A stretch of DNA of 64,000 nt, from contig JACQSF010000034.1 in the NCBI GenBank assembly GCA_016206085.1, positions 26 to 64,025 of the forward strand, given 5' to 3'. Positions 8,401-63,358 of this stretch are shown piece after piece. The stretch comes from Candidatus Uhrbacteria bacterium (GTDB lineage Bacteria > Patescibacteriota > Patescibacteriia > UBA9934 > GWF2-40-263). The notes beneath the pieces were generated by a model. It saw only the letters and a program-made list of their open reading frames with translations. It made no database searches and was not told the origin of the DNA. The number at the start of each line of letters is the position of its first letter. The first letter of the stretch is position 1. The position numbers and the translations under genes are program-made.

Positions 8401-9856
8401 CACACTGCCAAGCCGCGTCTGACATCATGTTCATGAGCTCGCGTGCGTTGCGCGTCTGAACGGGTTCTCCTGTGGTCACGGCATGAGTCGTCCATGGTTC
8501 ATCATTCTCGACGGCCGACATAAAGCCATCGGTCACACGCACAGAATTATTGGCATTTTGAAAATAGATGCTGGCATATGCATCACCATCGATAGAAGAA
8601 TCGTAACCGGCATCAATGAGAGCCCATGCTTTCTTTTCTTCCTTGACTTTGCACATGATGAACTCATCGATATCCGGGTGATCAATGTCCAAGATAACCA
8701 TTTTTGCGGCACGACGAGTCTTTCCTCCACTCTTAATGACCCCCGCAAAGGCATCGAGTCCTTTCATGAAGGAAACGGGACCGGAGGCTTTTCCGTTGCT
8801 ACCGCCCAAGTACTCATGCCGTGAACGAATTTTTGAAAGATTAGAACCTGTTCCAGAACCACCCTTGAAAAGCATTCCTTCTGTGACGCAAAGGTTCAGG
8901 ATGGAACGCATGTCATCCTGCACGGAGTTAATAAAACAGGCGGAACACTGTTGTGGACGTGGAGTTCCAACATTAAACCAGACCGGAGAATTAAATGCCG
9001 CCATTTGATTCACAAGAATGTAATGAAGCTCGTCATCAAACGCCTGGGCGTCTTCCTGTGTTTGAAAATAACCGTCCTTGCGTCCCCAATTCGCGATGGT
9101 TTTCGCGACACGTCCAACAAGTTGCTTCACGGAATACTCACGATCTTCTTTTCCAATGGTTCCAAAAAAATACTTTGAGACAACAATGTTTGTTGCGGTT
9201 TGTGTCCAGGTCTTTGGAACCTCCACACCCTTTTGTTCAAACACGACCTTTCCCTTGGAATCCGTGATGGAAGCATCACGTGTTTCCCATTCAATCTCGT
9301 CGTAGGGGTGAACGTCAGGTTTGGTAAAATATCGACCGACAACAATCCCGTGACCATACACTTCTTCTCGCGCTTCTTGCTGCAATCGTCCTTTGAACGA
9401 GACGTACCGTTTGGCGACATGTGGAAGATTGTAATCAACCAACGTAACACAAACGAACTCACGCACATCCGCATAGGTCGGCGTGCTGTGCCCATCAAAC
9501 TGACGCGTCAATCGACTCACGACTTGCGAAACAATGCGAGCCACTAACGCCTCTTCTCTCATTCCCGATTCTTCCGCGGCTCGTTTAATGGATCCGTGGA
9601 GCTTCTGTATCTCAAACGGCTGCTCTTCTCCGTTGCGTTTTTGAATGCTTTTCACGGACGTCATAAACGTCCAGACAGCGTCTGAGATGGATCCGGTCAC
9701 AAGACTCGTAGATTGAGCCTTTTTCGTAGCATGGTCCGACATAGGGCGAGTAGGTCGAGACTGTTTAAGAAATGCGCGATCTTGCAACTTGCGGGGCCCC
9801 TCCACCGCCTCATCGTAGGATTTACCTACGCCTCGGCGGCTGGTTTCCCCGCGCAT
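5471..9856 (-). CDS. nrdJ: Class II (adenosylcobalamin-dependent) ribonucleotide reductase with N-terminal ATP-cone, C-terminal Zn-ribbon tail and one intein
   Basis: ATP-cone VKSIQKRNGEEQPFEIQKL. Extein junction YASNP|C...HN|CSEYMFLNDSACNLASLN restores the NPC..E...CNL active-site block. Tail CDTCGSMMVRNAACYKCLNCG. The true start may be M39 or M65. Confidence 0.9.
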   Translation of the reverse strand: MRGETSRRGVGKSYDEAVEGPRKLQDRAFLKQSRPTRPMSDHATKKAQSTSLVTGSISDAVWTFMTSVKSIQKRNGEEQPFEIQKLHGSIKRAAEESGMREEALVARIVSQVVSRLTRQFDGHSTPTYADVREFVCVTLVDYNLPHVAKRYVSFKGRLQQEAREEVYGHGIVVGRYFTKPDVHPYDEIEWETRDASITDSKGKVVFEQKGVEVPKTWTQTATNIVVSKYFFGTIGKEDREYSVKQLVGRVAKTIANWGRKDGYFQTQEDAQAFDDELHYILVNQMAAFNSPVWFNVGTPRPQQCSACFINSVQDDMRSILNLCVTEGMLFKGGSGTGSNLSKIRSRHEYLGGSNGKASGPVSFMKGLDAFAGVIKSGGKTRRAAKMVILDIDHPDIDEFIMCKVKEEKKAWALIDAGYDSSIDGDAYASIYFQNANNSVRVTDGFMSAVENDEPWTTHAVTTGEPVQTRNARELMNMMSDAAWQCGDPGMQYDTTVNRWHTCKNTDRIYASNPCVTADTLISTDSGYRRIGELVGKDARVIAADGKSSHVTRIFPTGIKPIFELRTKSGYQLRLTEDHKVWTANRGDVPASELRIGDLLELKQPGFGNVHIEEVVAEMIGLTVGDGCLTSEQEIAFVSGGREEHGMFQSFNTRVNEYKQEMATDQRSARWSSVVDTPTGVRIGTSSRAVVEPLKRYALVDQGSLKKQFRDAIFELDKESQAALLRGLFSADGTVANYGEKSQYVGLDSVSVLLLRQVQLLLLGFGIKAKVYENRRQTFQTMMPNGRGGVAEYPVQQMHSLRISRDSRIEFERAIGFLSGSPKRAKLRTMNEEVGAYTDYFYDEFESLTEAGIEEVYDLTEPRTSHFVANGLLIHNCSEYMFLNDSACNLASLNLMRFRKPDENGVTIFDVEAFKKANEIIITAMEIIVSNCVYPTPAIEQNSHDYRPLGIGYANLGALLMSRGLAYDSDEGRNLAAAISSLQSGHCYYQSAKIAEKIGSFAGYKTNEEPCLEVMRMHRDATYQITQEGVPADLLTEARKSWDNVVEHGSKFGLRNAQISVIAPTGTISFLMDCDTTGIEPDIALVKYKWLVGGGMLKIVNQTVPEALTRLGYSDSERTDILAYIQEKDTIEGAPHLKSEHLCVFDCAFKAAQGTRTIHYMGHVHMMAAVQPFISGAISKTVNMPHEATVKEIADVYMTGWKLGLKAIAIYRDGSKRQQALTTSKESDAKKQNEDKKVEEVDKVVEVVKVANDQKLRRRRLPDERRAITHKFAVGNHEGYITVGLYDDGTPGELFLTMSKEGSVISGLMDSFATSISIGLQYGVPLEVLVNKFVHMRFEPSGYTNNPQIRIAKSITDYIFRWLALKFLPRESQLAVGINGGEEIEEVAKVEEVAEVGKVETAEKQPNLFEAKKTEPLELRSVHTQTFDNQSDAPACDTCGSMMVRNAACYKCLNCGATSGCS
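7232..8317 (-). mobile_element. Intein (362 aa, aa 514-875) with LAGLIDADG homing-endonuclease domain, inserted at the catalytic NPC cysteine
   Basis: Starts CVTADTLI (TGC is rc of 8315-8317). Block B LTEDHKV. LAGLIDADG motifs IGLTVGDGCL and LLRGLFSADGTV. Ends VANGLLIHN (AAT is rc of 7232-7234), followed by Cys+1. Confidence 0.9.
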
Positions 9857-9972
9857 TGCAATATCATCGCATTTCTTAAACAGTGCTAAAAAGGTGGATT
9901 AATAAACGTCAGATAAAAAGAAGATCCAACATAGGGATCATCTTTCACTCCTGGGAAGGGGAAGGCGCTCCA

Positions 9973-12660: not shown

Positions 12661-13671
12661 CTAATTTGTTTTAAAAACATCTCGAGCGGCTTCCCAAAGA
12701 CGGTCGTCCCCAGCTTGTTTAAGCGCGTACCACCATTCCGATCCCCAAAGATACGCTTCAGACACTCCCACCTCACGGGCGAACTTGACGTTGCGGTTAA
12801 ACATTTCAACATCGAATGATTCATACCATTGGGTCAAAGGTCGAGACTCGATGGGCTCCGGGAACCAAGGCTCTGCCTGAAGCTCAGAAATAACCACTTG
12901 ACTTACATCCTCCCCCACAAGAGACGCTCGAAAAAAATAATATTCCGGCGTGAGTGGATACATGAAGTACCCAAAAAAATCATTCCACGTCTGACGATAG
13001 AGAGAAATCCCGAGGATATCAGCGGCCTGAGCCGAGTCCAGCCATGGGCCCAACTCGCCGCTCACGGTCACCTGAATAGGACGATCATCCAGCGATCGCA
13101 CCAAGTCCACACGCTCTTTGAACTGCACCACGCTCATACTAGGACACTCTCCGTAGGGAAAGAACGGTTCGTTTTCCACTTGCCAACGTATGATTGCCGA
13201 TGAACCCTTGTAATGGATCACGGATTCCTCAATAAACGCAAGAACGGCTTGACGCTGGAAGTCCTCGTTAAATGACTCAGCCCAATCTGGAATGTAGCAC
13301 TCAGGCCAGCGAGGAACTTTCATTCCCGTAACAAGCGTGACCTCCACTCCACGATCTTCAGAGATCGCGAGAAGATTGTCGGAAATAGCCCAATCATACT
13401 CTCCCTGAGCACGCTCAATTTCAGACCAATAGAGTGGTAATCGAACATGACGAACCCCTAAATCGTTGACAAGGGCTTGGTACATCTTCACGGGATCCTG
13501 ACCCAGTTGGAGCGCGTAGACCCAAGAGAACGTCACGCCAAACGTGGGTTCCACAAGGCTTCGTGTATTGAGCCAAACGAAGGCGAATGTGAACATGGCG
13601 AGGGTGAGAACCGTCGCCAATGAAGCGAGCATGTAAAAGTATTTGGAATGATGATGTTTCATGTCCTCCAC
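12661..13671 (-). CDS. Membrane-anchored clan GH-A (TIM-barrel) glycoside hydrolase
   Basis: N-terminal TM. VRLPLYWSEIERAQGEYDW. Acid/base WQVENEP. Candidate nucleophile ISELQAEPW. Confidence 0.55.
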   Translation of the reverse strand: MEDMKHHHSKYFYMLASLATVLTLAMFTFAFVWLNTRSLVEPTFGVTFSWVYALQLGQDPVKMYQALVNDLGVRHVRLPLYWSEIERAQGEYDWAISDNLLAISEDRGVEVTLVTGMKVPRWPECYIPDWAESFNEDFQRQAVLAFIEESVIHYKGSSAIIRWQVENEPFFPYGECPSMSVVQFKERVDLVRSLDDRPIQVTVSGELGPWLDSAQAADILGISLYRQTWNDFFGYFMYPLTPEYYFFRASLVGEDVSQVVISELQAEPWFPEPIESRPLTQWYESFDVEMFNRNVKFAREVGVSEAYLWGSEWWYALKQAGDDRLWEAARDVFKTN

Positions 13672-13680
13672 ATCTTCGTC

Positions 13681-15264
13681 CTAAATCTCTTCCTGTTTCT
13701 CACGCAAAAATGCGAGCCAACTTTCCACGATATCAATAGCCGCCTTAAACGGTGCTTCGATGATGAAATCGAAGAAGAACAAAAAGATATTCACTCGAGG
13801 GGCACGCAGTGCGACCCAACGTCCAGTACGGATGATCGGTAAAAACAGCATGTCCGCCACGGTACCAAAGAACCCTCGCGAGAGATCAACGACGACCAGT
13901 TCACGTCGTGTATTGCGTATGCGCAAGCCGAAATAGGCCACCAACGAAAGAAAGAAAATAAAAAAGAAAATCGACAGGCCGTTAAATGCAAACGATTTGA
14001 GAACGGAAGAAACGACAACGATCGTCAACACTAAGATCCCAACGTAAAGCGTGTTGAAAATCCACCAAAGTGCCCCGCGACCCCAACCACGCTTGCGCTT
14101 AAAGATGACCGAAAACTCATCTCCCACTCCGAAGATCGCATGAAGCTCCTCCAAAATCCGCTGAGTATTCTGTTTTCTGGGAATGCGTACACTCAAACTT
14201 ATGAGCATGAGCAAAATCGGCGGAAAAAGAATATTTATCGCCAGCGGAAGATAGTCACTGGTGTGTAAGACGAAAACTTCGTAGGGCAACTCGATCACAA
14301 CGGCCAGAATGGATTTAGTGAGAAGTAAAAACAGAGCCGCGCGAACAACTGTGCGCTTAAGCTTCCCACGGAAGGTGCTGTAGCGGGTCTCTGCCGCCTT
14401 TGTCAACGCGGTATCAATACTTGGAATGTCCCCCCCCTTGAGCGCCTGCCCGAATGCCTCTGGATTGTCCCGTACCACATCAGACAGGACATGGAACACG
14501 ACGGCATGGCGTCGGATAAAGCGATACATCTCATCTTGCGCTGGATGCAAAATTTGGTGTTCAACAGAATTGATCACCTTCATGAGGTTCATCGAAATTT
14601 CCTTCACAACAGCGTCCCCCCCTTGCGATTTACGCCAGGTGTTATAGTAGAGCGTCAAAACACGATACCGAAGCGTCGCCTGATTGGATTTAAGCACGGT
14701 GCGGTGGATGGCAATGTACAATTGAAGATCGCGCTCCTCTCCTTGGAGCGTCTGTGTCTGCCATTCCAGACGTTTCTTGAGTTCTTGATAAGCAAAACTC
14801 GCAAGCGCCTCATCAATACAGGGGGGACCCAGCAAGTACTCAATCTCCACGGAGAGAACGTCCAGGAGCCACTCATAGGCATGCTGGCCATCTTTGCTTT
14901 CTGGATCGAGCGTCGTAAACAGTAATTTGTACTTCTCCAAAATTGTCCCGACCTTCTGGATCATGTTGGTTGGAACTTTGCCATTATGCAGGTAGCGAGC
15001 CCAAATCAACTCTTTGAGGAGCTTGGTCGCCATCTCACGAGACGGCCCATCCACCATGCGACGCTTAAGAATGCGATGAATCGCGTTTCGACGCAACAAA
15101 TGCTCCTCGTCATATTCCAGCGCGTTGCGGACTGTTTCGTAAACCGAAGCGGCCGCGGAAACCGTTTCAGAAACGTTCATCACGTCCTCTTCTTTCTCAA
15201 GTTCCTCGGCCTCTCGTCGCATTTGTACAACCGTCGAAAGAAGATGTTCCAGAGTTTTATCCAT
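13681..15264 (-). CDS. Hypothetical integral membrane protein
   Basis: Start taken at MDKTLEHLL (avoids overlap with the upstream stop at 15269). Soluble N-terminal half, several TM helices in the C-terminal half. Confidence 0.65.
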   Translation of the reverse strand: MDKTLEHLLSTVVQMRREAEELEKEEDVMNVSETVSAAASVYETVRNALEYDEEHLLRRNAIHRILKRRMVDGPSREMATKLLKELIWARYLHNGKVPTNMIQKVGTILEKYKLLFTTLDPESKDGQHAYEWLLDVLSVEIEYLLGPPCIDEALASFAYQELKKRLEWQTQTLQGEERDLQLYIAIHRTVLKSNQATLRYRVLTLYYNTWRKSQGGDAVVKEISMNLMKVINSVEHQILHPAQDEMYRFIRRHAVVFHVLSDVVRDNPEAFGQALKGGDIPSIDTALTKAAETRYSTFRGKLKRTVVRAALFLLLTKSILAVVIELPYEVFVLHTSDYLPLAINILFPPILLMLISLSVRIPRKQNTQRILEELHAIFGVGDEFSVIFKRKRGWGRGALWWIFNTLYVGILVLTIVVVSSVLKSFAFNGLSIFFFIFFLSLVAYFGLRIRNTRRELVVVDLSRGFFGTVADMLFLPIIRTGRWVALRAPRVNIFLFFFDFIIEAPFKAAIDIVESWLAFLREKQEEI

Positions 15265-20910: not shown

Positions 20911-21035
20911 TAGGACTTTCTCATTTGGATGAGATGCGCCGTGCTGGAGTCAAGAAAAACTGCAAACGTAGTGCAACCTACGGTGAGGATTTTTCTTGGC
21001 GAAGCACAAGCAGATCGCCAAATGAGAAAGTCCTA
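20911..21035. repeat. Long nested hairpin element A (125 nt), member of the ATGAGAT...AGATCG family
   Basis: TAGGACTTTCTCATTTGG (20911-20928) is the perfect reverse complement of 21018-21035. Inner stems are GTGCT/AGCAC, CAAGAAAAA/TTTTTCTTG and CGTAG/CTACG. Confidence 0.7.
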
Positions 21036-28534: not shown

Positions 28535-28691
28535 AAAACCGAGCATGGCCTGTTCCTAAATGAGCGATCTCGACTTTCACGGGCACCCAGGCATCGCTTC
28601 AACGTCCGTTTCAGGACGTTTTCAGCGATCGCCAGCCCGTTCAAGCCGATCTCATCTCATTTAGGAACAGTCCTAGCACATGCTCGGTTTT
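28535..28691. repeat. Long nested hairpin element B (157 nt); same family as D, opposite orientation
   Basis: Arms AAAACCGAGCATG+TGTTCCTAAATGAG (28535-28564) against CTCATTTAGGAACA+CATGCTCGGTTTT (28656-28691). Inner hairpin AACGTCC-gtttca-GGACGTT. Confidence 0.7.
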
Positions 28692-28695
28692 ATCG

Positions 28696-29571
28696 TTAAC
28701 AGCTACACGAACAGTCGGTTCCGCATCCTCCCCCACGTTTCATCCAGGCGTACTTTTCCATGGTGTCTCGCAGGGCTTCCTCAATCGGTCGCATGGTGAT
28801 GCCTCTCTTTGCAAGATTCTCTGACGCGAGAAAATTATTCGATCGTCCCTTGCGAACGAGTCCTTGACTTACAAGTTCGTCGTTTGAGATCCACTCGCAA
28901 GAGTGTGCAGGGTCGACAAGTTCTTTGTAGAGCGCGAGTAAGTCGCGGTGACGCAAGGTTCCAGGATTGGTTACATGAAAAATTCCTGACGCCCGCTTGA
29001 CAAGTAACTGATAGAATACGTCGATCATGTCGTCAAGAATGGTGACAGAGTTTTCGGCGTCGATCACTTTTGCGAATCCGGAGAGTTTATCGATAAGGTT
29101 CCCCGGAGCCGGCATCCAATCAATCGGCATGCGAATACGAGCGACGCCGACGTTTGGGAGTGTTGAGAGGGCAAGGTCAGCCGCCCACTTGCTGCGTGAG
29201 TACACGGGCTTAGGATTTCCAAAGTCGTCTTCGCGCCATGCCTTATCTGGATGAGGCGAGTCGCCGTAAAAAATGCAGCCCGACCCCATGTGCAGCATGT
29301 ACACCCCCGCCTGGCTACAGGCATCCGCAAGCAAGAGCGGCATGGTCGTGTTCCCACGAATCGTCTCGAGTTGATGATCCTCACACCAATCGACGTTTGG
29401 TTTCCCTTTCACACCCGCGGCGTTGAAAACCACGTCGGGTTGGACACGGCGTATTTCGTCCAGCGCATCTTCCACTGTTTGTACGATCACATCGGAAAGT
29501 GTTGCTTCCTCTCCCCACGCCTGCGCGCATCGTTCTCCCATGTATCCCTTACCAAAAATGAGAATTTTCAT
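28696..29571 (-). CDS. Bifunctional NDP-4-keto-6-deoxyglucose 3,5-epimerase/4-reductase of the plant NRS/ER (UER1) type; RmlD superfamily
   Basis: Blocks VFNAAGVKGKPNVDWCEDHQLETIRGN, GCIFYGD, RIRMPID, NSVTILDD, HVTNPG and RSNNFL match my recollection of Arabidopsis NRS/ER. Unusual tail GGGCGTDCSCSC. Confidence 0.7.
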   Translation of the reverse strand: MKILIFGKGYMGERCAQAWGEEATLSDVIVQTVEDALDEIRRVQPDVVFNAAGVKGKPNVDWCEDHQLETIRGNTTMPLLLADACSQAGVYMLHMGSGCIFYGDSPHPDKAWREDDFGNPKPVYSRSKWAADLALSTLPNVGVARIRMPIDWMPAPGNLIDKLSGFAKVIDAENSVTILDDMIDVFYQLLVKRASGIFHVTNPGTLRHRDLLALYKELVDPAHSCEWISNDELVSQGLVRKGRSNNFLASENLAKRGITMRPIEEALRDTMEKYAWMKRGGGCGTDCSCSC

Positions 29572-29589: not shown

Positions 29590-29722
29590 CTCGTCATTGC
29601 GAGGAGGGAGTTTATCGGCGACCGACGACGTAAAGTCGCGTTGCGACCACGTCGCTTTACGCGAAGCAATCTTCGAAGATTGCTTCCCGCCACGGCTTCG
29701 GCTGGTCGCTCGCAATGACGAG
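29590..29722. repeat. Compound palindromic repeat of the GTCATTGCGAG family
   Basis: CTCGTCATTGCGAG (29590-29603) is the rc of CTCGCAATGACGAG (29709-29722). Internal perfect palindrome GAAGCAATCTTC|GAAGATTGCTTC at 29663-29686. Confidence 0.75.
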
Positions 29723-29733
29723 TAGTATCAATA

Positions 29734-30735
29734 TTAACGTTTTCCGTATTGTTGTTCGTAATATTCCTTATAAGCGCCTGTTCGACATCGGTCGACCCAC
29801 TCGAGATGCTGTTTGTACCATTCCACCGTCTGCGCGAGGCCTTCCTCAAAACTTACTTGCGGTTCCCATCCAAGCTCCGTGCGTAGCTTGTTTGAGTTGA
29901 TGGCGTAACGTCGATCGTGACCTGGTCGATCTGCCACGTACTCGATCGCGTCCTGTCCCCGCCCGGTCAGTTCGAGCAACTTCTTTGTCACATCCAGGTT
30001 GGACACACGATAACCAGTTCCGATATTGTAAACCTCGCCCGGATTCCCTTTGTGAGCAATGAGGTCAATCGCCCGACAATGATCTTGCGTGAAGATCCAC
30101 TCACGTACCTGCATCCCATCGCCATAAACCGGAACCGTCTTGCCTTCAAGCAGGTTCATCGTAAATAGCGGGATAAGCTTCTCCGGAAACTGATAGGGCC
30201 CGTAAAAGTTGCATGAGTGTGTCACGGTGACAGGCACCCCATAGGTGATCGCATACGCCTGGCACAAGTGATCCCCTGCGGCCTTGGACGCTGAGTAAGG
30301 CGAGCGCGGTTCGAACTTCGATCCCTCATCGCTCTCCCCTTCCATAACGGCTCCGAATACTTCATCTGTTGAAATTTGCACGTAACGAGGTGTTTTGTAC
30401 TTACGCACCGCCTCCAAAATGTTGTACACGCCGTAGATGTTGGTATCGATGAACGCCTTTGGTTCAAGAATTGATCGATCCACGTGCGTTTCTGCGGCGT
30501 AGTTAAGGACGAGATCCACCCCAGCAACAGCCTTGTCGACGGCCTCAGAATCTGCGATGTTGCCTTTCATGAATGTGTACCCAGGATTAACGGCCACATC
30601 TGCAAGACTCTCTAAGTTTCCTGCATAAGTGAGATTATCAAAATTTACGATCTCCACATCAGGATACGTGCGCAGAAGATAGTGAATCATGTTGGAGCCC
30701 ATGAACCCGGCTCCACCTGTAAGAAGAATTTTCAT
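29734..30735 (-). CDS. rfbB: dTDP-glucose 4,6-dehydratase
   Basis: MKILLTGGAGFMGSN...YSASKAAGD...DGMQVREWIF, typical RmlB. Confidence 0.9.
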   Translation of the reverse strand: MKILLTGGAGFMGSNMIHYLLRTYPDVEIVNFDNLTYAGNLESLADVAVNPGYTFMKGNIADSEAVDKAVAGVDLVLNYAAETHVDRSILEPKAFIDTNIYGVYNILEAVRKYKTPRYVQISTDEVFGAVMEGESDEGSKFEPRSPYSASKAAGDHLCQAYAITYGVPVTVTHSCNFYGPYQFPEKLIPLFTMNLLEGKTVPVYGDGMQVREWIFTQDHCRAIDLIAHKGNPGEVYNIGTGYRVSNLDVTKKLLELTGRGQDAIEYVADRPGHDRRYAINSNKLRTELGWEPQVSFEEGLAQTVEWYKQHLEWVDRCRTGAYKEYYEQQYGKR

Positions 30736-51607: not shown

Positions 51608-52501
51608 ATGAACATCGGAATTCTCATTTTCTCCGGATCGCGCGATGAGGGCTATACGGGTGTCGATCGCCTCGTGGAAGCAGGCCAGGCGGCGGGGCAT
51701 ACGATCGTAAAAATTTACGAGCCGCATCTTTCATCTTTGGATGGACAGATTTTTCAGGACGGCCAGCCACTCCCCACACTCGACCTCATCATCTCTCGAC
51801 CAAACTTTGTCGAGGAACCAAGTCTTCGCACCTATGCGATCCAGCTTCTCAAAGATGCTGGGTATCGAATCGTAAATGGAAACGTCGGATTTACCTGGGC
51901 AAAAAACAAACTCATACAGCACGTCCTCTTTGCACAACATAGACTCCCCTGTCCACGCTGGGGCATCGCCCGCAAACCCGACGATGCGGTGGCGGTCGCC
52001 AAAAAACTGGGCTTCCCCACCATTGTAAAAGTTGCGTTCGGGACGCATGGTAAGGGTGTCTTCCTTGCCAAAGATGAGGAGTCTCTCTGGCCCATCGTTG
52101 ATTACCTTGGTATCCGCGATGGGAACCCCATGATCGTCGAAGAGTTTATCGCGGAGGCAAAATCGTCGGATCTGCGAGCGTTCGTCATTGGGGGAAACGT
52201 CGTTGCAGCTATGCAGCGAACAGCCTCGGCTGGAGATATACGTGCAAACACGTCAAACGGTGGAACCGGATCGATCGTGGAACTCAGAGAAGAAGAACGT
52301 GCGCTTGCTGTGCGCGCCGCTGAGGTTTTTGATCTGGAGATCGCGGGTGTAGATCTCATCCGCTCAAATCGCGGGACGCTCATTCTTGAGATAAACGCGA
52401 ACCCTGGATTCAAGGAACTCGAGGCTGTGACAAAGATCGACATCTCCCGGTTGATTATCGATTATGCCGTATCAACGATTCCACTTCAGGATTCACGATG
52501 A
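51608..52501 (+). CDS. rimK: RimK-family ATP-grasp alpha-L-glutamate ligase
   Basis: ATP-grasp blocks FPTIVKVAFGTHGKGV, DLRAFVIGG, AGVDLI...LEINANPG. Confidence 0.8.
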   Translation: MNIGILIFSGSRDEGYTGVDRLVEAGQAAGHTIVKIYEPHLSSLDGQIFQDGQPLPTLDLIISRPNFVEEPSLRTYAIQLLKDAGYRIVNGNVGFTWAKNKLIQHVLFAQHRLPCPRWGIARKPDDAVAVAKKLGFPTIVKVAFGTHGKGVFLAKDEESLWPIVDYLGIRDGNPMIVEEFIAEAKSSDLRAFVIGGNVVAAMQRTASAGDIRANTSNGGTGSIVELREEERALAVRAAEVFDLEIAGVDLIRSNRGTLILEINANPGFKELEAVTKIDISRLIIDYAVSTIPLQDSR

Positions 52502-53245: not shown

Positions 53246-54733
53246 TTACACAAGACTTCCTCCAAACTCTTGCAGAAGCACTCCGACCGTTTCATCCTCT
53301 GATGCCTTCATTTTTTTCTGAATAGCTTTCACGCGTAGTTTCTTTCCCAGTACCTGCTCAAAGACCCCCTCGATAAGCCGTCGATTCTTTTCTTGATTAA
53401 TCGTCTCGACATACAAACCATACTCAAACCCAAGCTCCACATGCTCTCCTTCTATGCCACAGACCTCGCAGGATTGCATCAACAAAGGAAGCGAAGTGTT
53501 ACACGACTTGATCTGTTCGTACACTTCTGGCCATTTATTTTTGACGTCTTCCAGACTGATGATGGGAACAGTATCGAAGATAATCCTATTCTCGTCATTG
53601 CGAGGGAGCTCTGCGACCGAAGCAATCTCCAAATCGGTGGATTGCTTCGCGTGGCTCGCAATGACATCGATATGCATCGAATCAACCCCCTGCTTCTGAA
53701 AATCCAGCCCGCAAATCTTGATCACAGCCAGCTCAACGGGAAGTTGCGGCAACTGTTCGTTGGCTCGTGTTCGCTGTGTTGCCAACAATTCCTCTATCGC
53801 CGTTTGTAAAAAGCTAACGGAAAATTCCTTCTGTGTTCCCCCAACCGTCTCCAGCAGTCGATCACGCAACCAAGAAATCGTATCTGAAACAAATTGTCGG
53901 AGGTCGACGCCTGACTCGAGATATTCGTTGAGCTGCGTGATCGCTTGAGCTGCCGTATGGTCTTTCAGGGATCCGACGAACGCTTCTACAAGAACGATTT
54001 GAGTCGCAGGCAGCACCAGCGATGCTTCCTTCATTCCAATTTCCATTTCCCCAAGGGCTAACACTTGTCCCAAAAGACTCTCCGCATCACGCGCACATCC
54101 GCCGCTATGCCGAGCGATCTCACGTAATACCACCTCGTCCACCTTCACTCCTTCTTCTTTCACAATTCCTTTCATGCGTTCCACAAGTTCATCCGAGCTG
54201 ATCCGTTTAAAATCAAACCGCTGGCAACGACTGATGATCGTTTCAGGAACTTTGTGGATCTCGGTCGTCGCCAACACAAACAGCACGTGCTCTGGTGGTT
54301 CCTCAAGGGTTTTCAAAAGCGCATTAAAGGCCGAGGTCGAAAGCATGTGTACCTCGTCAATGATATACACTTTCTTTTTCAACACATTAGGAGCAAAGCG
54401 CACTGAATCGATCACCGTTTCACGGACGTTGTCGACACCCGTGTGCGATGCCGCATCAATTTCATACACATCTAATGCTTGTCCTGAAGCAATCGAAACA
54501 CAGGCATCGCAGGTATTGCAGGGCTCATTCTTTTTTGGCGAAAGACAATTCACCAGCTTGGCAATAAGCCGAGCGGTGGTTGTTTTTCCTACACCGCGAG
54601 GACCCGTAAACAAATAGGCGTGAGCGGTAGACCCAGAGGCATGTTGGTTCTGCAATGTTCGAACCACATGCTCCTGCCCGCTCACCTCCTGAAATGTTTT
54701 GGGTCGATAGGTGCGATAGAGAACTTTAGACAT
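53246..54733 (-). CDS. dnaX: DNA polymerase III subunit gamma/tau
   Basis: YRPKTFQEVSGQEHV, Walker A GPRGVGKTT, Zn module CNTCDAC, SRC motif ISRCQRF. Confidence 0.9.
   Translation of the reverse strand: MSKVLYRTYRPKTFQEVSGQEHVVRTLQNQHASGSTAHAYLFTGPRGVGKTTTARLIAKLVNCLSPKKNEPCNTCDACVSIASGQALDVYEIDAASHTGVDNVRETVIDSVRFAPNVLKKKVYIIDEVHMLSTSAFNALLKTLEEPPEHVLFVLATTEIHKVPETIISRCQRFDFKRISSDELVERMKGIVKEEGVKVDEVVLREIARHSGGCARDAESLLGQVLALGEMEIGMKEASLVLPATQIVLVEAFVGSLKDHTAAQAITQLNEYLESGVDLRQFVSDTISWLRDRLLETVGGTQKEFSVSFLQTAIEELLATQRTRANEQLPQLPVELAVIKICGLDFQKQGVDSMHIDVIASHAKQSTDLEIASVAELPRNDENRIIFDTVPIISLEDVKNKWPEVYEQIKSCNTSLPLLMQSCEVCGIEGEHVELGFEYGLYVETINQEKNRRLIEGVFEQVLGKKLRVKAIQKKMKASEDETVGVLLQEFGGSLV
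53594..53665. repeat. 72-nt GTCATTGCGAG-family palindromic element inserted in frame in dnaX
   Basis: GTCATTGCGAG...GAAGCAATC-tccaaatcggtg-GATTGCTTC...CTCGCAATGAC. It encodes VIASHAKQSTDLEIASVAELPRND in the dnaX linker. Confidence 0.75.
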
Positions 54734-54814: not shown

Positions 54815-55432
54815 CTAGTTGTTCAAACGTTCTACCGCTGCCCAAACGGAAGTTCCTCCGCTTGGAATAAGGATCACAACTTCATCACCCGGAATCCCCT
54901 TGAAGTAAGAGACGCTCGCGACAAGGACTTTATACACGTCTTGATCGACCTGCACAATCGGTTCCTGTGTGGATGAATCTATGCCGAGTCTTCCAACCAA
55001 GCGGCGACGTTCCACCGGACCAATTTGTTTAAATACGTAATTTCCGTTTAATTTTACTATGAGTTTGAGGATATCCCCCTCAACGAGCTTGGACTTAGAC
55101 GCGTAATTCTCCGGTACGGTATAGCGCACCCCATCAGCCCCGACCATCCCCTGGCCATCAAAAACACCCTCAATCACTCGCATCTCCATACCGGACTCGA
55201 GTTCGGTCTCGACCAATTTCTTCTGTGAAACAAAATGAACCATTTGTCTCGTGGCACGTGTCGTATCCCCCTCTTCGAGTAACTGAATCACGTGCGACAA
55301 ACTGTCACGGGTTTGTTTAAGCATTTGCAGGGCGAGTCGATTGCGTGCGTCGCCATGCTCACGCTGGTTTGCATGTACGTCAACATCCGGCTCCGTTTCA
55401 AATGTGTAGGTATCTCCTTCACTCTCAGACAT
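54815..55432 (-). CDS. Hypothetical protein (205 aa)
   Basis: ORF only; acidic N-terminus. No recognised motif. Confidence 0.6.
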   Translation of the reverse strand: MSESEGDTYTFETEPDVDVHANQREHGDARNRLALQMLKQTRDSLSHVIQLLEEGDTTRATRQMVHFVSQKKLVETELESGMEMRVIEGVFDGQGMVGADGVRYTVPENYASKSKLVEGDILKLIVKLNGNYVFKQIGPVERRRLVGRLGIDSSTQEPIVQVDQDVYKVLVASVSYFKGIPGDEVVILIPSGGTSVWAAVERLNN

Positions 55433-55440
55433 AGATTACT

Positions 55441-55567
55441 TTGAATTACGAAACTCGATGAGATTTGCGTGAACGGGCTGACGATCCCCGCGAACCCTAT
55501 GAAAACATAGGGAGAGCGGGGTCGGCGGGCGCCCGTGAACGCAAAGATCGCGAGTTTCGTAATTCAA
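55441..55567. repeat. Long nested hairpin element D (127 nt), ATGAGAT...AGATCG family
   Basis: TTGAATTACGAAACTCG (55441-55457) is the perfect rc of 55551-55567. Inner stems are TTTGCG/CGCAAA, GGGC/GCCC, CCCCGC/GCGGGG and CCCTAT/ATAGGG. Confidence 0.7.
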
Positions 55568-55573
55568 CATAGG

Positions 55574-58129
55574 TTAAAATTCGCTTACTTCTGGAATGGC
55601 AGGAACTACTCCTCCCCGATTTCCCAGCGCCGTTCGCTCCATAATCTCGGCCTCGACAATCGCCCGATCGCGACCATACTTCAGACGTGAAAGTTCCTTA
55701 ATCGCGTTGGCAAGCTCTACATCTCCTTTAGGTGGTGGGGTGAAATTGAGGGTGAACGGTTTCTGCTGGGCGTTATCGACAATCATTTTAACGTACCAGG
55801 TAAATTTATCCGAATTGATGAGATCGTATCCGGAAAATTCCGGTGCATAAATCTTCTCAAGTGTTTCCACGTCCTCAGGACCGATACGAGCAACAAAATT
55901 CGTCCCCACGTTCCCAAAGACGGCATCACGAATCTTTGTATCATTATTTTTGACGAGCTGTCCGATGTACTGGTGCGCGATAATGAGATTTAATCGATAC
56001 TTACGAGCCTCGGACAAAATGGTCGCGATGGAATCGGTAATAAAATTTTGGAACTCGTCAATATAGAGGTAAAAATCATGACGCTGATCCTCCGGGAGAT
56101 CTGCCCGTGTGAGCGCGGCCATCTGAAGTTTAGAAACGATAACAAGTCCAAGAAGCTCGGCATTGACATCTCCCGTCTTTCCCTTGGAAAGGTTCACGAG
56201 CAAAATCTTCTTGTTGTCCATGATATCACGGAAGTTGAAACTCGACTTGGCCTGACCGATGATGTTGCGCATCATTTCGTTTTCGACAAAGCGACCAACC
56301 TTGGACACAAGGTACCCCATCATTTCTGACTTATGATAGTCGCTCGTGTTGTCAATTTCGTCTTCCCAGAAAGATCGCACGACCGGATCTTTCAGTCTAG
56401 AACGCCAAAGATCTTGAAACTTCTTGTCCGTCACCATGCGCGGGATCTCCGCGATGGTTCCTGGATTCTCCGGATCTGCCATGAGCGTCAACATGAAGTT
56501 GCGCATCTGGTGCTCGAACATCGGACCGATCATCTCTGGCGGGAACAACTTGTAAAAAATCGAGATCATTTCCTGCACAGCAAAATCCTTCATGGCGTCG
56601 TTGGGCGCCTCAAGCATATTAAGACCCATGGGACGTTCCATATCCGATGGATTAAAAACGACCACGTCGTCCACGCGTTCTTTGGGAATATTCGCCAAAA
56701 TAAGTTCGATGAGATCCCCGTGTGGCTCCACGACCGCCACACCATGACCCGCCTTAATATCCTGGATGGCAAGGGCAGCGATAAGCTGAGACTTTCCGGA
56801 ACCGGATTTACCTACCACGTACATATGGCGGGTACGGTCGACGGACCTCATCCAAATGGGAGTACGAATTCCACGGAACATGTTGTACCCAAGCTCAATA
56901 TCTCCGTCCTCTGGCCCAGGGATTCCCGAAGGTGCCGGACCTTTGCGTGCGCCGAGCCACTTGATATTGGGTGTCTCGGTCCAGGGAAGAGGAAGATGCC
57001 ACAAACTCGCCATCTCCTCCGCATTGAGGACGATCGTATTGCTCTGGTTGAAGCCTCGATAAATAAAATCCCGGATGATACGTTTCTTGCGTCCTGGAAC
57101 AACCTTCACGAACGAATTTCCATATTCATAAATGTTGTACTGGGCAAAAGCATTCAACATGTTCTGCAAAAGCGTCTGAGCATTTTGCAACGACTTGGAT
57201 GAGGTCACAAGACGAATACACACATCCATTCCCGCTTTGCTCGCTTTGGTCTCAAGACCTTTGACGATTTGTTCCTCTAAAGGCGAAAGTCGATATTCTT
57301 TTTCTGGTTCTTGCGGCTTGTTTCCCCCAAATCCTGCAAGCTCAGCCCAACCAACCTTTCCCTTCTTCTTTCCTTTCAACGCCTCAGTAAGTTTCATTCC
57401 CTGCTGCATGTTACTGGCGATTTTTATCCCTTTCTTGCGCCACTTCGCATAGGAAGAACGCACCAAAAACTGAAACGCCGCGCCACCCCCTTCCGGAATT
57501 TTTGAAAGCACATTTGTGATCGCGTTGAGCGGATCCTTCTCAAGTTCCCGATAGGTCTTGATTGGGAACGCATGCTCCCGACGAAAGACAAGATGACTTC
57601 CCAGGATGACGCCATCGGGTTGGAAGATATTGTAATCTTCGACTTCCTCGGTATAGGCGTCTGGATAGGCTGCGGAGAGTTGTTGTTCGAGAAACTCACG
57701 CAGCTCAACAGGGGAACTCACATAAAACTTGATGAGCTTTTTCTCAACCACAATCTCAAACGAAAACTCATCCTGCCGTCCCAAGAACCACGCCTTAAAA
57801 CCACGCTGAGCCTTAAGCCCGCCGACAGAAGAGAAGAACGACTCGGAAGCCGCTATGGCCTCCTGTACCTGATCTTTCGACGGACCACGTTCACTTTCCT
57901 CTTCTCGACGAAATTTTGGGAGAGTCACCAGCAAGGTCACACGACGAAACGTTGCCTGTTTTGCCAGCGAAAGTCGGTGCAGGATAAAGCGGCCAAGAGA
58001 CAGAAACCCGATCAAAACTCCCAGGCCAAGAACACCCCACAAAATAACTCCAGCCATAAAAAGATCCCCCTGCGCCGCCCTGGCAACGGATGATGTGTCG
58101 GCTTGCATCCCAAATTGAAGTACGTACAT
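55574..58129 (-). CDS. Type IV secretion coupling protein-like (TraG/TraD/VirD4-type) membrane ATPase
   Basis: N-terminal TM. Walker A VVGKSGSGKS. Walker B FYLYIDEFQNF. ARKYRLNLIIAHQ. ATG 58129 overlaps the upstream stop (TGATG). Confidence 0.65.
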   Translation of the reverse strand: MYVLQFGMQADTSSVARAAQGDLFMAGVILWGVLGLGVLIGFLSLGRFILHRLSLAKQATFRRVTLLVTLPKFRREEESERGPSKDQVQEAIAASESFFSSVGGLKAQRGFKAWFLGRQDEFSFEIVVEKKLIKFYVSSPVELREFLEQQLSAAYPDAYTEEVEDYNIFQPDGVILGSHLVFRREHAFPIKTYRELEKDPLNAITNVLSKIPEGGGAAFQFLVRSSYAKWRKKGIKIASNMQQGMKLTEALKGKKKGKVGWAELAGFGGNKPQEPEKEYRLSPLEEQIVKGLETKASKAGMDVCIRLVTSSKSLQNAQTLLQNMLNAFAQYNIYEYGNSFVKVVPGRKKRIIRDFIYRGFNQSNTIVLNAEEMASLWHLPLPWTETPNIKWLGARKGPAPSGIPGPEDGDIELGYNMFRGIRTPIWMRSVDRTRHMYVVGKSGSGKSQLIAALAIQDIKAGHGVAVVEPHGDLIELILANIPKERVDDVVVFNPSDMERPMGLNMLEAPNDAMKDFAVQEMISIFYKLFPPEMIGPMFEHQMRNFMLTLMADPENPGTIAEIPRMVTDKKFQDLWRSRLKDPVVRSFWEDEIDNTSDYHKSEMMGYLVSKVGRFVENEMMRNIIGQAKSSFNFRDIMDNKKILLVNLSKGKTGDVNAELLGLVIVSKLQMAALTRADLPEDQRHDFYLYIDEFQNFITDSIATILSEARKYRLNLIIAHQYIGQLVKNNDTKIRDAVFGNVGTNFVARIGPEDVETLEKIYAPEFSGYDLINSDKFTWYVKMIVDNAQQKPFTLNFTPPPKGDVELANAIKELSRLKYGRDRAIVEAEIMERTALGNRGGVVPAIPEVSEF

Positions 58130-58662
58130 CACAAATCTTCGCTTCGCTTTTTTTCTTCCTCGCTTACGAACAAAATTTTATCGGTCTTAATTTTTGCCTC
58201 CTGCTCCAAAAAAAATCGATTCACACCAGGGATGATCTTGAGCCAGTCTCGAATGAGATGAAAAATCTTTTTCGCGTTGATCTTGGCCGAACGAACGATT
58301 TGACGAATCCTGGAGCGCGTCTGCTCGCCCTTTTCACAAAACTCTGCCTGCTTGTCTGGTGACATCGTCAGGTACAACTCCTTCAAATCCTCCTCAAGAA
58401 TATCCTCAATTTCCTCCTCCAGTTTGTCAGTTTGCTTTATCCCAACCGACGCAGCCCTGCGTGATGTCACAAGCTGATCCTTGTGTGAAGTCTCCCCTAC
58501 CGGAGAAGATTCTGATGACGAAGAACGCTCTGGTTCTCTTGGTTGTTCTACTACCGACTCCTGGCTGGTCTGGATCTCCACCACCGGTTCAGAACCCCGA
58601 GGAACCTCTTTTGTCTCGGGAGTTTGAATTCCTATTTTTTGCTTGAGGATATCTTTTGCCAT
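58129..58662 (-). CDS. Hypothetical protein (177 aa), translationally coupled to the T4CP-like gene
   Basis: ORF only. Ser/Glu-rich N-terminal half. Confidence 0.55.
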   Translation of the reverse strand: MAKDILKQKIGIQTPETKEVPRGSEPVVEIQTSQESVVEQPREPERSSSSESSPVGETSHKDQLVTSRRAASVGIKQTDKLEEEIEDILEEDLKELYLTMSPDKQAEFCEKGEQTRSRIRQIVRSAKINAKKIFHLIRDWLKIIPGVNRFFLEQEAKIKTDKILFVSEEEKKRSEDL

Positions 58663-61891: not shown

Positions 61892-62452
61892 TTAATCCTC
61901 TTTCGCTCCCCCACCAAATAGAGCCATCGCGACAACAGGAAGTGTAACCCACACAGCGCGCGCAATGTCACTCATAAAAAGGGCTTGGCTCAATGGCGAA
62001 AGGACGTTGGCGAGGTCGGCGGGAAAAAATGAAAGCGTGACACTGATGAGCAACCCAACATGTAAAAACGAGTAGATCATCACTTGCCAAAATTTACCCT
62101 GAGCAGAAGTTCCATGACCGAACGCTTTCATCAAAGCGGAATGCGAAAGGAAAAAGAAGAGGAGAATAAAAACACCAAGAAACACAGAGACGCGCAAGGC
62201 GAAGGTGTCGTTTACGGAAACTTCTGCCGTGCTCACGCCTGTCAGGAAGGGCATGTAGTTCACGATCGCCAGCGCCATGTAAATCGAGACAAGGATCACG
62301 ATGATACGATCACGTCCAAGCGAGACGCCGTAAATCAGGGAGGCGACGACAAAAAAGAGAATAATAAAAAGATCCCAAGTGGGTTCGAGCCAGTTCACGT
62401 TGTTGACCGCGTTCACGACAGTGTCCGGGTCAAAGAGTGCGGTCTGAAACAT
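61892..62452 (-). CDS. Integral membrane hypothetical protein (5 TM)
   Basis: ORF with hydrophobic segments throughout. Confidence 0.6.
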   Translation of the reverse strand: MFQTALFDPDTVVNAVNNVNWLEPTWDLFIILFFVVASLIYGVSLGRDRIIVILVSIYMALAIVNYMPFLTGVSTAEVSVNDTFALRVSVFLGVFILLFFFLSHSALMKAFGHGTSAQGKFWQVMIYSFLHVGLLISVTLSFFPADLANVLSPLSQALFMSDIARAVWVTLPVVAMALFGGGAKED

Positions 62453-62467
62453 ATCCTCCTAACTAAC

Positions 62468-62504
62468 CCTCGTCATTGCGAGGAGCGAAGCGACAAAGCA
62501 ATCC
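62468..62504. repeat. Half-copy of the GTCATTGCGAG repeat family
   Basis: CCTCGTCATTGCGAGGAGCGAAGCGACAAAGCAATCC. Confidence 0.6.
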
Positions 62505-62524: not shown

Positions 62525-63142
62525 TCAAGAACGGGCGATGAACTCAGCTGATGATTTGTATGTAGCCTGTACATTCTTCGAGGATCCACGCGCGAGTACA
62601 TTGTCGAGCAAATTGTGTTCGTCGATCTTGAGCGTTGCCAAGGCAATCTGCACCGAACCGCCGAAGCCGATCTGTTTCCCATCGAGAGCTGCGATCGCGA
62701 CAGCGGTGGCGCGATGGTGGCCTTCCATGCAGACAATGCGATCGGTTCCCTCGATTTGTAACCCAATGAAGGTGGTCAACGGTGGAAAGTTCTTCATCAT
62801 GGAAACGACTTTCTCATAAGCACGGAAGAGGAGCTCCTGTTCGGGAATGTGTACGAGATCGGCAAATGTGTGTTTATTGGGCGCGGGCAACCTCGACTGC
62901 CAACCTGTGAACGGACCTACGAGCATGCTGGGAATCTCACTCATGGGATCCGTCAGTTCGAATATCGCCCACTCCCGCTGCGACGCTTTGATCTGCTCCG
63001 CCGTAAACCGTCTCCACGCCTCCCAGCTCTCCCAACCTTTCAAGACCGTCGCACAATGAATCCAACCCGGATCATTCCCCTCGCGTTGTTTCCAATCTTG
63101 GAAGACTTCTTGCCACGTTGTTGGCCGGATACGTTTGAGCAT
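62525..63142 (-). CDS. Hypothetical protein; possible ParB/Srx-like (GHHR) C-terminal segment
   Basis: IVCMEGHHRATAVAIA resembles the DGHHR motif of ParB-like nuclease domains. Weak. Confidence 0.5.
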   Translation of the reverse strand: MLKRIRPTTWQEVFQDWKQREGNDPGWIHCATVLKGWESWEAWRRFTAEQIKASQREWAIFELTDPMSEIPSMLVGPFTGWQSRLPAPNKHTFADLVHIPEQELLFRAYEKVVSMMKNFPPLTTFIGLQIEGTDRIVCMEGHHRATAVAIAALDGKQIGFGGSVQIALATLKIDEHNLLDNVLARGSSKNVQATYKSSAEFIARS

Positions 63143-63358
63143 AACTGGTAGATAGTACCATACAGGTCAGTGTCATCCCGAGCGACCCCGAACCTGTCGA
63201 GGGGGAGCCGAGGGATCTCGAGTTGACGACAAAAGTTCGCACCTGCGAAAATTTGTCGTCAGTCAAAAAGCACATAACCCGACCTGACGTATAACTACGA
63301 CCCCACAACGAAACATAAAAGCGTACCAGAAAGGTACACTTTTAAGTATGACTGTTTT

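Follow-up and report, generated by a model that had tools for sequence, protein, structure and literature searches.

A palindromic repeat read in frame in dnaX of a Candidatus Uhrbacteria bacterium: probably an old insertion of a CGTC-tagged dimer

Rickettsia palindromic elements (RPEs), which Ogata et al. reportedly described in 2000, and repetitive extragenic palindromes (REPs) belong to the repeat types already published as in-frame insertions in replication genes. Here we describe a repeat of this kind, 72 nt long, at positions 53594–53665 of a 64,000-nt stretch of a Candidatus Uhrbacteria contig (JACQSF010000034.1), which we call the window. It is located within dnaX, the gene for the gamma and tau subunits of DNA polymerase III. 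With a probability that we put at roughly 75%, the 72 nt are an inverted dimer of REP-type units with outward-facing CGTC or TGTC tags, which was inserted long ago into a permissive linker and has been kept similar to its repeat family by the exchange of sequence between copies. The new aspects are the host phylum and gene, the finding that one linker has been hit repeatedly, the evidence that the element is maintained at the nucleotide level and decays, the presence of in-frame copies in structural genes of phages, and the near-identity of the unit type across phyla.

Two superfamilies of REPs have been distinguished by their tags, GTAG and CGTC (Di Nocera, De Gregorio, Rocco 2013, BMC Genomics 14:522; PMC3733652). 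The CGTC REPs start with a 5' CGTC tag, often changed to TGTC or CCTC, which is followed by a stem of 8–9 bp beginning with A-T/T-A pairs, a loop of 4–5 nt, and a short tail, mostly CCA. They occur in five phyla, mostly as head-to-head dimers between co-directional or convergent open reading frames (ORFs), and have no dedicated transposase. Some units from Bradyrhizobium, K. olearia, and M. prima have atypical loops. Intragenic copies were found as well, many of them in replication and repair genes, where the dimers encode 20–30 aa. The R. conorii families CGTC-1 and CGTC-4 are RPE-6 and RPE-4, respectively (PMC3733652). RPEs are about 100–150 bp long and form 10 families, described in Rickettsia, with 44 coding insertions in R. 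conorii (PMC10969869). REPINs, hairpin-forming doublets of REPs, are mobilised by REP-associated tyrosine transposases, RAYTs (Bertels & Rainey 2011; PMC3116915).

The dnaX dimer and its relation to described repeats

The dnaX gene occupies positions 53246–54733 of the minus strand and has an intact reading frame of 495 aa. The product contains the Pfam domains DNA_pol3_delta2 (3.9e-44) and DNAX_ATPase_lid, with a weak match to DnaX_C at residues 391–475, and is 100% identical to the NCBI entry "DNA polymerase III subunit gamma/tau" from Candidatus Uhrbacteria bacterium. The sequence of the element was re-read exactly as first quoted. Position 53665 is the first base of codon 357 (54733 − 53665 = 1068 = 356 × 3), and the element corresponds exactly to codons 357–380, which are free of stops and encode VIASHAKQSTDLEIASVAELPRND. 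In an AlphaFold model calculated with an alignment of orthologues as input, residues 344–390, located between the last helix of domain III (330–340) and the start of the C-terminal domain at residue 394, have predicted local distance difference test (pLDDT) values below 50 and lack secondary structure. Therefore, the element is positioned in a linker that the model predicts to be disordered and permissive to insertions. The length of the linker varies among the 120 best DnaX protein matches, from a few residues after a conserved block to well over 100 residues overall. As in RPEs, the insertion is compatible with the protein, since neither the ORF nor the C-terminal domain further downstream is disrupted. 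The original description of a segment of exactly 24 codons, in frame in the linker after domain III, was thus correct.

The two palindromic units of the dimer differ in length. The long unit, (C)GTCATTGCGAG-GGAGCTCTGCGACC-GAAGCAATC, at 53594–53627 on the plus strand, forms the 3' half in the dnaX sense, and the short unit, (T)GTCATTGCGAG-CCACGC-GAAGCAATC, at 53640–53665 on the minus strand, forms the 5' half. Sequence and folds identify the spacer TCCAAATCGGTG between them (53628–53639) as the apical loop region. The 72 nt fold as RNA with −35 kcal/mol (z = −3.2) and as DNA with −22.7 kcal/mol (z = −4.6), and in each case one of 200 shuffled sequences was as stable. The fold consists of an outer stem of 11 bp and an inner stem of about 10 bp, separated by an asymmetric internal loop with 14 nt on one side and 6 nt on the other. 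The element was thus rightly recognised as a hairpin, but the internal loop contradicts its description as near-perfect.

The window contains other members of the same family. Sequence GTCATTGCGAG has five exact matches (29593+, 29709−, 53594+, 53655−, and 62472+) and six matches with at most one mismatch, against 1.7 expected, whereas GAAGCAATC has seven matches against 0.95 expected, a number that was reached by none of 100 shuffles. An intergenic dimer of 133 nt with perfect 14-nt terminal arms is located at 29590–29722, flanked by the co-directional minus-strand ORFs 28696–29571 and 29734–30735. A single unit, CGTCATTGCGAGGAGCGAAGCGACAAAGCAATCC, is located at 62468–62504 on the plus strand between the co-directional minus-strand ORFs 61892–62452 and 62525–63142; it differs by 1 nt from a 33-mer present with 100% identity in a Methylosinus plasmid. 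A fourth element is located at 63171–63219 (plus strand), a single unit of the sister type TGTCATCCCGAG...CGAGGGATC, whose stem ATCCC/GGGAT is related to ATTGC/GCAAT by paired changes. The tags are CGTC in both units of the 29590 dimer, in the 62468 unit, and in the long dnaX unit, and TGTC in the short dnaX unit. When 21 half-units were aligned, taken from the window, from related genomes, and from three other phyla, GTCATTGCGAG and AAGCAATC proved invariant, enclosing a middle of 6–60 nt; these half-units were selected for containing the stem motifs, which the search patterns likewise required. The basic unit of the family is a short imperfect palindrome of the form tag-ATTGC...GCAAT-tail. 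The claim that the dnaX element has its termini and inner motif in common with 29590–29722 and 62468–62504 is upheld by the exact matches and by the formal alignment. Both are members of the family, but the latter is a single unit and not a dimer. A search of Rfam with the whole window at gathering thresholds, and with both dimers at permissive E-values, returned only chance matches resembling miRNAs.

By most of its features, the element files under the CGTC-tagged REP superfamily, with a stem/loop type and a host that are not listed there, and it is not an RPE in the strict sense. The tag is present in 28 of 28 units from Uhrbacteria (18 TGTC, 10 CGTC) and in 169 of 180 units from viral contigs (118 TGTC, 51 CGTC), in a count for which the G was fixed by the scan pattern in at least one unit per viral locus. 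All units have the stem beginning with A-T pairs, ATTGC/GCAAT or ATCCC/GGGAT, which is a partly circular result, being set by the search pattern. Tails are CTC, CCA, CCC, CTT, or CCT, and CCA was found in 39 of 180 viral-contig units and 1 of 28 Uhrbacteria units. Besides tag and stem, features held in common with CGTC REPs are the predominance of inverted dimers with outward tags, in a layout resembling the R. conorii CGTC-1 dimer SFLRKQES...DSRFRRND, the usual location between co-directional or convergent ORFs, the absence of an adjacent transposase, and the intragenic dimers of 20–30 aa in replication or repair genes, to which the dnaX dimer with its 24 aa conforms. Neither Patescibacteria nor dnaX was part of the CGTC REP survey (PMC3733652). 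The peptides VIAS, VIAR, SLRG, and LAMT are absent from its five text supplementary files, the table of intragenic copies included, and so are ATTGCGAG and CGTCATTGC; the consensuses of its four families are given there only in a figure, so that the units were compared with the descriptions.

The element had been likened to RPEs in its behaviour, and the likeness has a basis in the tag and the AT-first stem of the CGTC superfamily, to which RPE-4 and RPE-6 of R. conorii belong. These two families are CGTC-tagged and begin with CGTCATT, as do the units described here. RPEs also resemble the dnaX dimer in being palindromes in frame in unrelated, often essential genes, where they are tolerated as an extra peptide. 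Membership in an RPE family is not indicated, because the element is 72 nt long, belongs to Patescibacteria, and has only the CGTCATT start in common with RPE-6-type units. Furthermore, coding insertions are the rule for RPEs, whereas the present family is mostly intergenic and occurs in several phyla and phage-like contigs.

The units resemble REPINs in that two inverted palindromic units and a spacer form a long hairpin, doublets are more frequent than expected, and new units are found in or beside old ones. However, REPINs have tags of the GTAG type, are found outside genes, and evolve together with a single-copy RAYT, so that they differ between genera, whereas the units here have CGTC or TGTC tags, are near-identical across phyla, and are not accompanied by a RAYT-like ORF in the approximately 1.3 Mb sampled. 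Miniature inverted-repeat transposable elements of the DDE-transposase type have terminal inverted repeats, as the element does, but also a target-site duplication, which it lacks. Literature searches for the DNA motifs of the units or their peptides, and for palindromic elements in the Candidate Phyla Radiation, found nothing relevant.

Age and maintenance of the insertion

The DNA of thirteen dnaX orthologues was compared, and the 120 best DnaX protein matches were surveyed; the latter are Uhrbacteria or Patescibacteria proteins with identities down to about 50%. In a scan of genome contigs with the DnaX alignment, which includes generic AAA+ peptides, most matches came from unrelated phyla, and just two were Uhrbacteria loci. 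Three orthologues with about 80% identity to the window DnaX (L081, L082, and L083) contain a dimer of like kind at the identical codon position, and its DNA motifs are intact there. The boundaries of the insertion are equal to the nucleotide in all four genomes, 13 nt past GTTGATTC and 12 nt before GTCTTYGAY, and the lengths of the three orthologous dimers, 75, 96, and 105 nt, respectively, are all multiples of three. Two other orthologues contain remnants. In L087, only a decayed 3' half, GAGCTTCCCCGCGTTGAA, is present, which is clearly homologous to GAACTCCCTCGCCATGAC of L082 and the sequence before it, and in L084, the decayed remnant has GCCATTGCACAG in place of GTCATTGCGAG. The dimer is absent from many more distant DnaX proteins, among them P0061, in which only the four residues MRST connect the DFxKQGVDS block to VF(D/E)T(V/I)P. 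The presence of the dimer at one position in orthologues of about 80% identity, with remnants in two and absence further out, argues for an old insertion. At identical residues, the codon identity between the window gene and the dimer-bearing orthologues is 0.48–0.57, indicating that synonymous sites are saturated. The insertion is common to independent NCBI and JGI assemblies and is therefore not an assembly artefact. Thus, by these comparisons, the 72-nt segment is an insertion rather than native sequence, and one old enough to be common to species with saturated synonymous sites. The comparison of DnaX proteins with and without the 24-aa segment favours the insertion that had been predicted, and orthologues with the segment also carry the repeat in their DNA.

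The window, L081, and L083 have the same terminal and inner motifs, letter for letter, despite the saturated synonymous divergence. One of these motifs, AAGCAATCC, is read as SNP in L081, in another frame than in the window, where it is read as KQS. Since the same nucleotides are read in two frames, the peptide is not what is conserved, and the conservation of the element acts at the nucleotide level. The 5' halves of the dnaX dimers in the window, L081, and L083 represent three different standard variants of the family. The 5' half of L081 matches the intergenic unit L083:14080 and the unit of L213, whereas that of L083 contains the inner insert GCCGCGAGCGAAGCGTGGCGGG, which is also present in four intergenic copies of L083. 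In the window dimer, the long unit has a single difference from its L081 counterpart over 34 nt, with an inner part similar to the intergenic L086:2779, and the inner part of the short unit is 1 nt off the short arm of a Methylosinus plasmid dimer (L088). Random drift from one ancestor would not remake standard variants, which points to gene conversion or replacement through the conserved arms. Copies would thus exchange sequence by gene conversion or re-mobilisation. In the loci with decayed dnaX copies, L084 and L087, the 21 and 18 kb of flanking sequence, respectively, are free of intact units, although this sample is small and biased. The commonest inner sequence contains GCGAAGC, which we take to be an unusually stable DNA mini-hairpin, and which would fit a single-stranded DNA intermediate.

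Based on these comparisons, a history of the element can be proposed. A copy of the repeat would have entered a short disordered linker between domain III and the C-terminal domain of DnaX in the ancestor of a sub-clade of Uhrbacteria. It probably survived because its length was a multiple of three, it introduced no in-frame stop, and the place was permissive, so that the protein gained 24 linker residues. The element presumably has no role for DnaX itself. Gene conversion or re-mobilisation through the arms may have kept its motifs at the family consensus by exchanging sequence with copies elsewhere in the genome, and where the family has died out, the copy would decay into ordinary linker.

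Several observations weigh against this history or against the classification on which it builds. Gene conversion is an indirect reading of the shared variants. Locus L081 has an intact dnaX dimer and no other unit in its 18.8 kb; if this lack holds genome-wide, it would favour selection on the dnaX copy itself. The related loci were all obtained via dnaX, and the sample is biased accordingly. The stems have about 5 canonical pairs plus G/A mismatches, compared to 8–9 bp in CGTC REPs, and the middles are 5–75 nt long with nested hairpins (median 15 nt in viral and 24 nt in Uhrbacteria units), compared to loops of 4–5 nt. No target-site duplication surrounds the dnaX dimer in the four genomes, and no direct sign of recent movement of units was seen in the compared loci. 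No transposase family is enriched among the 603 ORFs located 600 nt or less from any of 175 units. A crude regular-expression search of about 1.3 Mb, comprising the window and the related, viral, and plasmid loci and thus partial genomes, detected neither HUH/Y1- nor RAYT-like ORFs. Finally, the element is located at the position where tau and gamma are split in other bacteria, beside a block under strong synonymous constraint.

The dimers of the window, L081, L082, and L083 might instead be separate, more recent insertions at a strictly preferred target in dnaX, which would account for the three standard variants among the 5' halves and for perfect arms despite saturated synonymous divergence. 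Other Uhrbacteria do carry independent units 5–14 nt past the block in other frames. At least 12 of the 120 best DnaX matches have linker peptides that belong to the dnaX-element family or to sister types and are read in more than one frame (VIAS..PRND, SLRATEGSEAIS, SLRG..DEAIS, ..ARND, SSRA..EPRDL, VIPS.., and VILSEAKDL), at two sites on either side of the conserved DFxKQGVDS motif. At the DNA level, L212 has the canonical GTCATTGCGAGCGAAGCGAAGCAATC 6 nt past the block, and L213 has an intact single unit 14 nt past the block in another frame; these two are independent insertions into the same linker. Nevertheless, we consider separate insertion of the four dimers unlikely. The insertion has exactly the same two boundaries in four genomes, although the adjoining flanks are unconserved and show neither a target motif nor a duplication. 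Only 1 of 34 nt distinguishes the 3' half in the window from that in L081, and the remnants in L087 and L084 are located at the same position. A linker free of inserts is about 4–8 codons long, and with an ancestral linker of that length, closeness to the block needs no targeting.

An old insertion also bears on the original proposal that a repeat family is colonising coding sequence, including a replication gene. In-frame insertions of the family are borne out, whereas an ongoing invasion is not supported by the dnaX copy, which is old. The proposal is further weakened by the distribution of elements in the window: a crude map of the longest ORFs covers about 93% of the sequence, and three of the four elements are located in the remaining 7% or so, between co-directional genes.

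The conserved block upstream of the dimer

In E. coli dnaX, a programmed −1 frameshift at the end of domain III separates tau from gamma. The Uhrbacteria gene has a stable mRNA hairpin past domain III, with a Shine–Dalgarno-like (SD-like) sequence upstream and a −1 stop nearby, as the E. coli cassette does. The SD-like sequence belongs to the block GATTTTCAGAAGCAGGGGGTTGATTC, which encodes DFQKQGVDS (residues 344–352) at 53679–53704 on the minus strand, 13 nt upstream of the dimer and outside the repeat. The hairpin and the block could therefore be read as a host-level RNA signal for pausing, frameshifting, or mRNA cleavage that yields a short, gamma-like DnaX. The motifs of the dimer are conserved as nucleotides while synonymous sites are saturated, the location is exactly past domain III, and different lineages have different hairpins in the linker, all of which such a signal would explain. 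No other part of dnaX is as conserved at synonymous sites as the block itself, GATTTT..CRGGRGGTTGWTTC, in which codon identity reaches 0.98 while the mean over the gene is 0.48. All 13 Uhrbacteria orthologues retain the block, down to P0073, listed at 57% identity, and it is absent from the sampled DnaX loci of other bacteria. It contains the SD-like AGGRGG and a run of four T, and a −1-frame stop follows within 21 nt of the T run in 13 of 13 orthologues, at varying positions; the gene has one other such place.

Other features of the locus make an RNA signal improbable. There is no slippery heptamer of the form X XXY YYZ, the SD-like run is downstream of the sole T run, and conservation of the −1 TGA breaks down in 3 of 13 orthologues. 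The dimer begins 32 nt past the T run and 19 nt past the G run, too far for a classical −1 frameshift stimulator, which is found 5–9 nt from the slippery site. The hairpin is dispensable and variable: its type, its frame, and its distance from the block (5 to more than 70 nt) differ between orthologues, it decays in L084 and L087, and P0014–P0020, P0023, and P0061 keep the block with no recognisable repeat insert (as seen in the protein survey, with DNA for few of them). Moreover, most copies of these repeats are found between genes, and others lie in genes unrelated to dnaX. An internal start codon past the SD-like run was considered and rejected because it is present in only some orthologues, and a literature search for dnaX frameshifting in Patescibacteria found nothing.

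We also speculate, with little confidence, that the block may be a nucleotide-level site for pausing or for the production of a short gamma-like DnaX, which REP hairpins inserted downstream have been repeatedly co-opted to tune. If that very unlikely scenario were true, a selfish repeat would have come to contribute to the recoding of an essential replication gene in a bacterium with a reduced genome. Native linker with a coincidental likeness to the repeat, or an assembly chimera, is hardly credible: linkers are variable and of low complexity and the contig is metagenome-assembled, but the 11-nt and 9-nt motifs are exact and each present twice in inverted orientation, as in intergenic copies and plasmids of other phyla, one motif is read in two frames, more distant orthologues lack the segment, and independent NCBI and JGI assemblies have it.

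The family beyond dnaX and other features of the window

In-frame insertion is recurrent in this repeat family beyond dnaX. The gene beside dnaX, which encodes a rimK-like ATP-grasp protein, contains an in-frame sister-type dimer of the TGTCATCCCGA type, read as CHPERSEGSPHDQEIPRHVTPRDD, in L082 (gene at 14253–15203), a single unit in L086 (gene at 12913–13863), and a decayed copy in L084 (gene at 13332–14267), whereas the sites are empty in the window (gene at 51608–52501, plus strand) and in L085. No target-site duplication was visible when the occupied and empty sites of this gene were compared. In 80 IMG/VR loci, 20 of 133 elements are located deep within long ORFs. The hosts confirmed by Pfam are SPP1-type portals, a Phage_portal/Mu-F protein, a large terminase, a protein with a DNA-ligase domain, and a type III methylase; the in-frame host ORFs are L113:3846–5330, L170:38–1450, L130:7918–9504, L115:4465–6654 and 7311–9068, L108:102–2387, and L144:3152–4291.

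Nor is the family lineage-specific, given near-identical units in plasmids of Alpha- and Gammaproteobacteria and Cyanobacteria and in many IMG/VR contigs. The 33-nt unit GTCATTGCGAGGAGCGAAGCGACGAAGCAATCC is present with 100% identity in Methylosinus trichosporium plasmids. Plasmid pOB3b1 of M. trichosporium OB3b (L088:2501–2582) contains an inverted dimer between convergent genes, with a long and a short arm as in dnaX. Close matches to the unit were also found in plasmids of Methylocystis, Novosphingobium, Calothrix, Aulosira, Tolypothrix, Legionella, and Halomonas, and a scan of IMG/VR detected it in at least 120 contigs. The dnaX loci of Uhrbacteria contain 24 units in 231 kb, compared to 1 in 1.18 Mb of dnaX loci of other bacteria. 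Among 95 arrangements of neighbouring units, the commonest, with 26 cases, is the inverted "+−" pair with fewer than 40 nt between the units, and two of the four elements in the window are such dimers. The copies in proteobacterial and cyanobacterial plasmids and in phage portal and terminase genes make phages and plasmids possible vehicles of the family.

The dnaX dimer extends in-frame insertions of REP or RPE type to the Candidate Phyla Radiation, with its tiny genomes that are about 93% coding by the crude ORF map, and adds dnaX to the published pattern of such repeats being frequent in replication and repair genes. The linker locus provides a compact natural experiment on the upkeep of transposase-less CGTC repeats and on the building of protein linkers. 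When genuine proteins are annotated, peptides such as VIAS..KQS..PRND, SLRG..RSNL, and ..LAMT within them are best regarded as derived from repeats. An antisense ORF of 138 aa at 53393–53809 (plus strand), which covers the element and the conserved block and contains VIARELCDRSNLQIGGLLRVARND, is most likely spurious and created by the repeat; ORFs of this kind are most likely the source of "hypothetical proteins" with ARND or LAMT motifs.

The dnaX linker collects several unrelated hairpin repeats. In L085 (8898–9100) and L214, corresponding to the linkers of proteins P0002 and P0005, unrelated GC-rich palindromes are present instead of the dimer, and another such palindrome is located in the linker of L002. 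The sequences include CCCTGCCTGCCGGCAGGCAGGG and GTTACGG..CCCAGGC..GCCTGGG..GTAAC, and are read as PAGRGFSLGEA or GFPARHSFSDGGSLGE. Remnants of dimer arms had been considered in the P0002/P0005 clade but were dropped, because the DNA there is the different palindrome.

Two candidate links to other elements were discarded. The transposase located beside the Calothrix copy of the unit is a zinc-ribbon fragment of IS1595 type and is unrelated. A presumed connection to the 23S rRNA intervening sequence and its S23p four-helix-bundle protein was dropped, since the termini of the Coxiella intervening sequence do not match and there is no such ORF between the arms in the loci compared. A small Cys-rich protein with a helix-turn-helix (HTH) motif adjoins or separates units in six viral contigs, among them L161:5996–6376, L113:5549–5857, L116:7735–8097, and L127:4668–5024. 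It has the pattern WDLLPEEFPYEDxGCE...EIARIFxVSxRTVQRWLK and weak matches to HTH_23, GerE, and Sigma70_r4, and its recurrence may merely reflect related contigs.

The gene order around dnaX, in which a TraG/VirD4-like ATPase is followed by a protein of about 205 aa and then by dnaX, is kept in the window (54815–58132), in L081–L087, and in L213. The ATPase is about 850 aa long and matches DUF8128, T4SS-DNA_transf, and TrwB, and the 205-aa protein has no Pfam match. The sister unit at 63171–63219 (TGTCATCCCGAG...CGAGGGATCTC) is directly followed by an unrelated hairpin at 63224–63261 with 18-nt arms, TGACGACAAAAGTTCGCA/TGCGAAAATTTGTCGTCA. Four more hairpins have a common geometry, with arms of 17–18 nt around 89–93 nt, and are located at 9760–9884, 20911–21035, 28547–28673, and 55441–55567. 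The arms are perfect in three of them and have a single mismatch in the one at 28547, and the arm sequences are all different. The set has no Rfam match, and the hairpins at 9760 and 28547 are partly alike in the loop; together, the four may represent an unrecognised structured element or a second repeat family. The hairpin at 55441–55567 takes up the interval that separates the 205-aa ORF from the TraG-like gene near dnaX.

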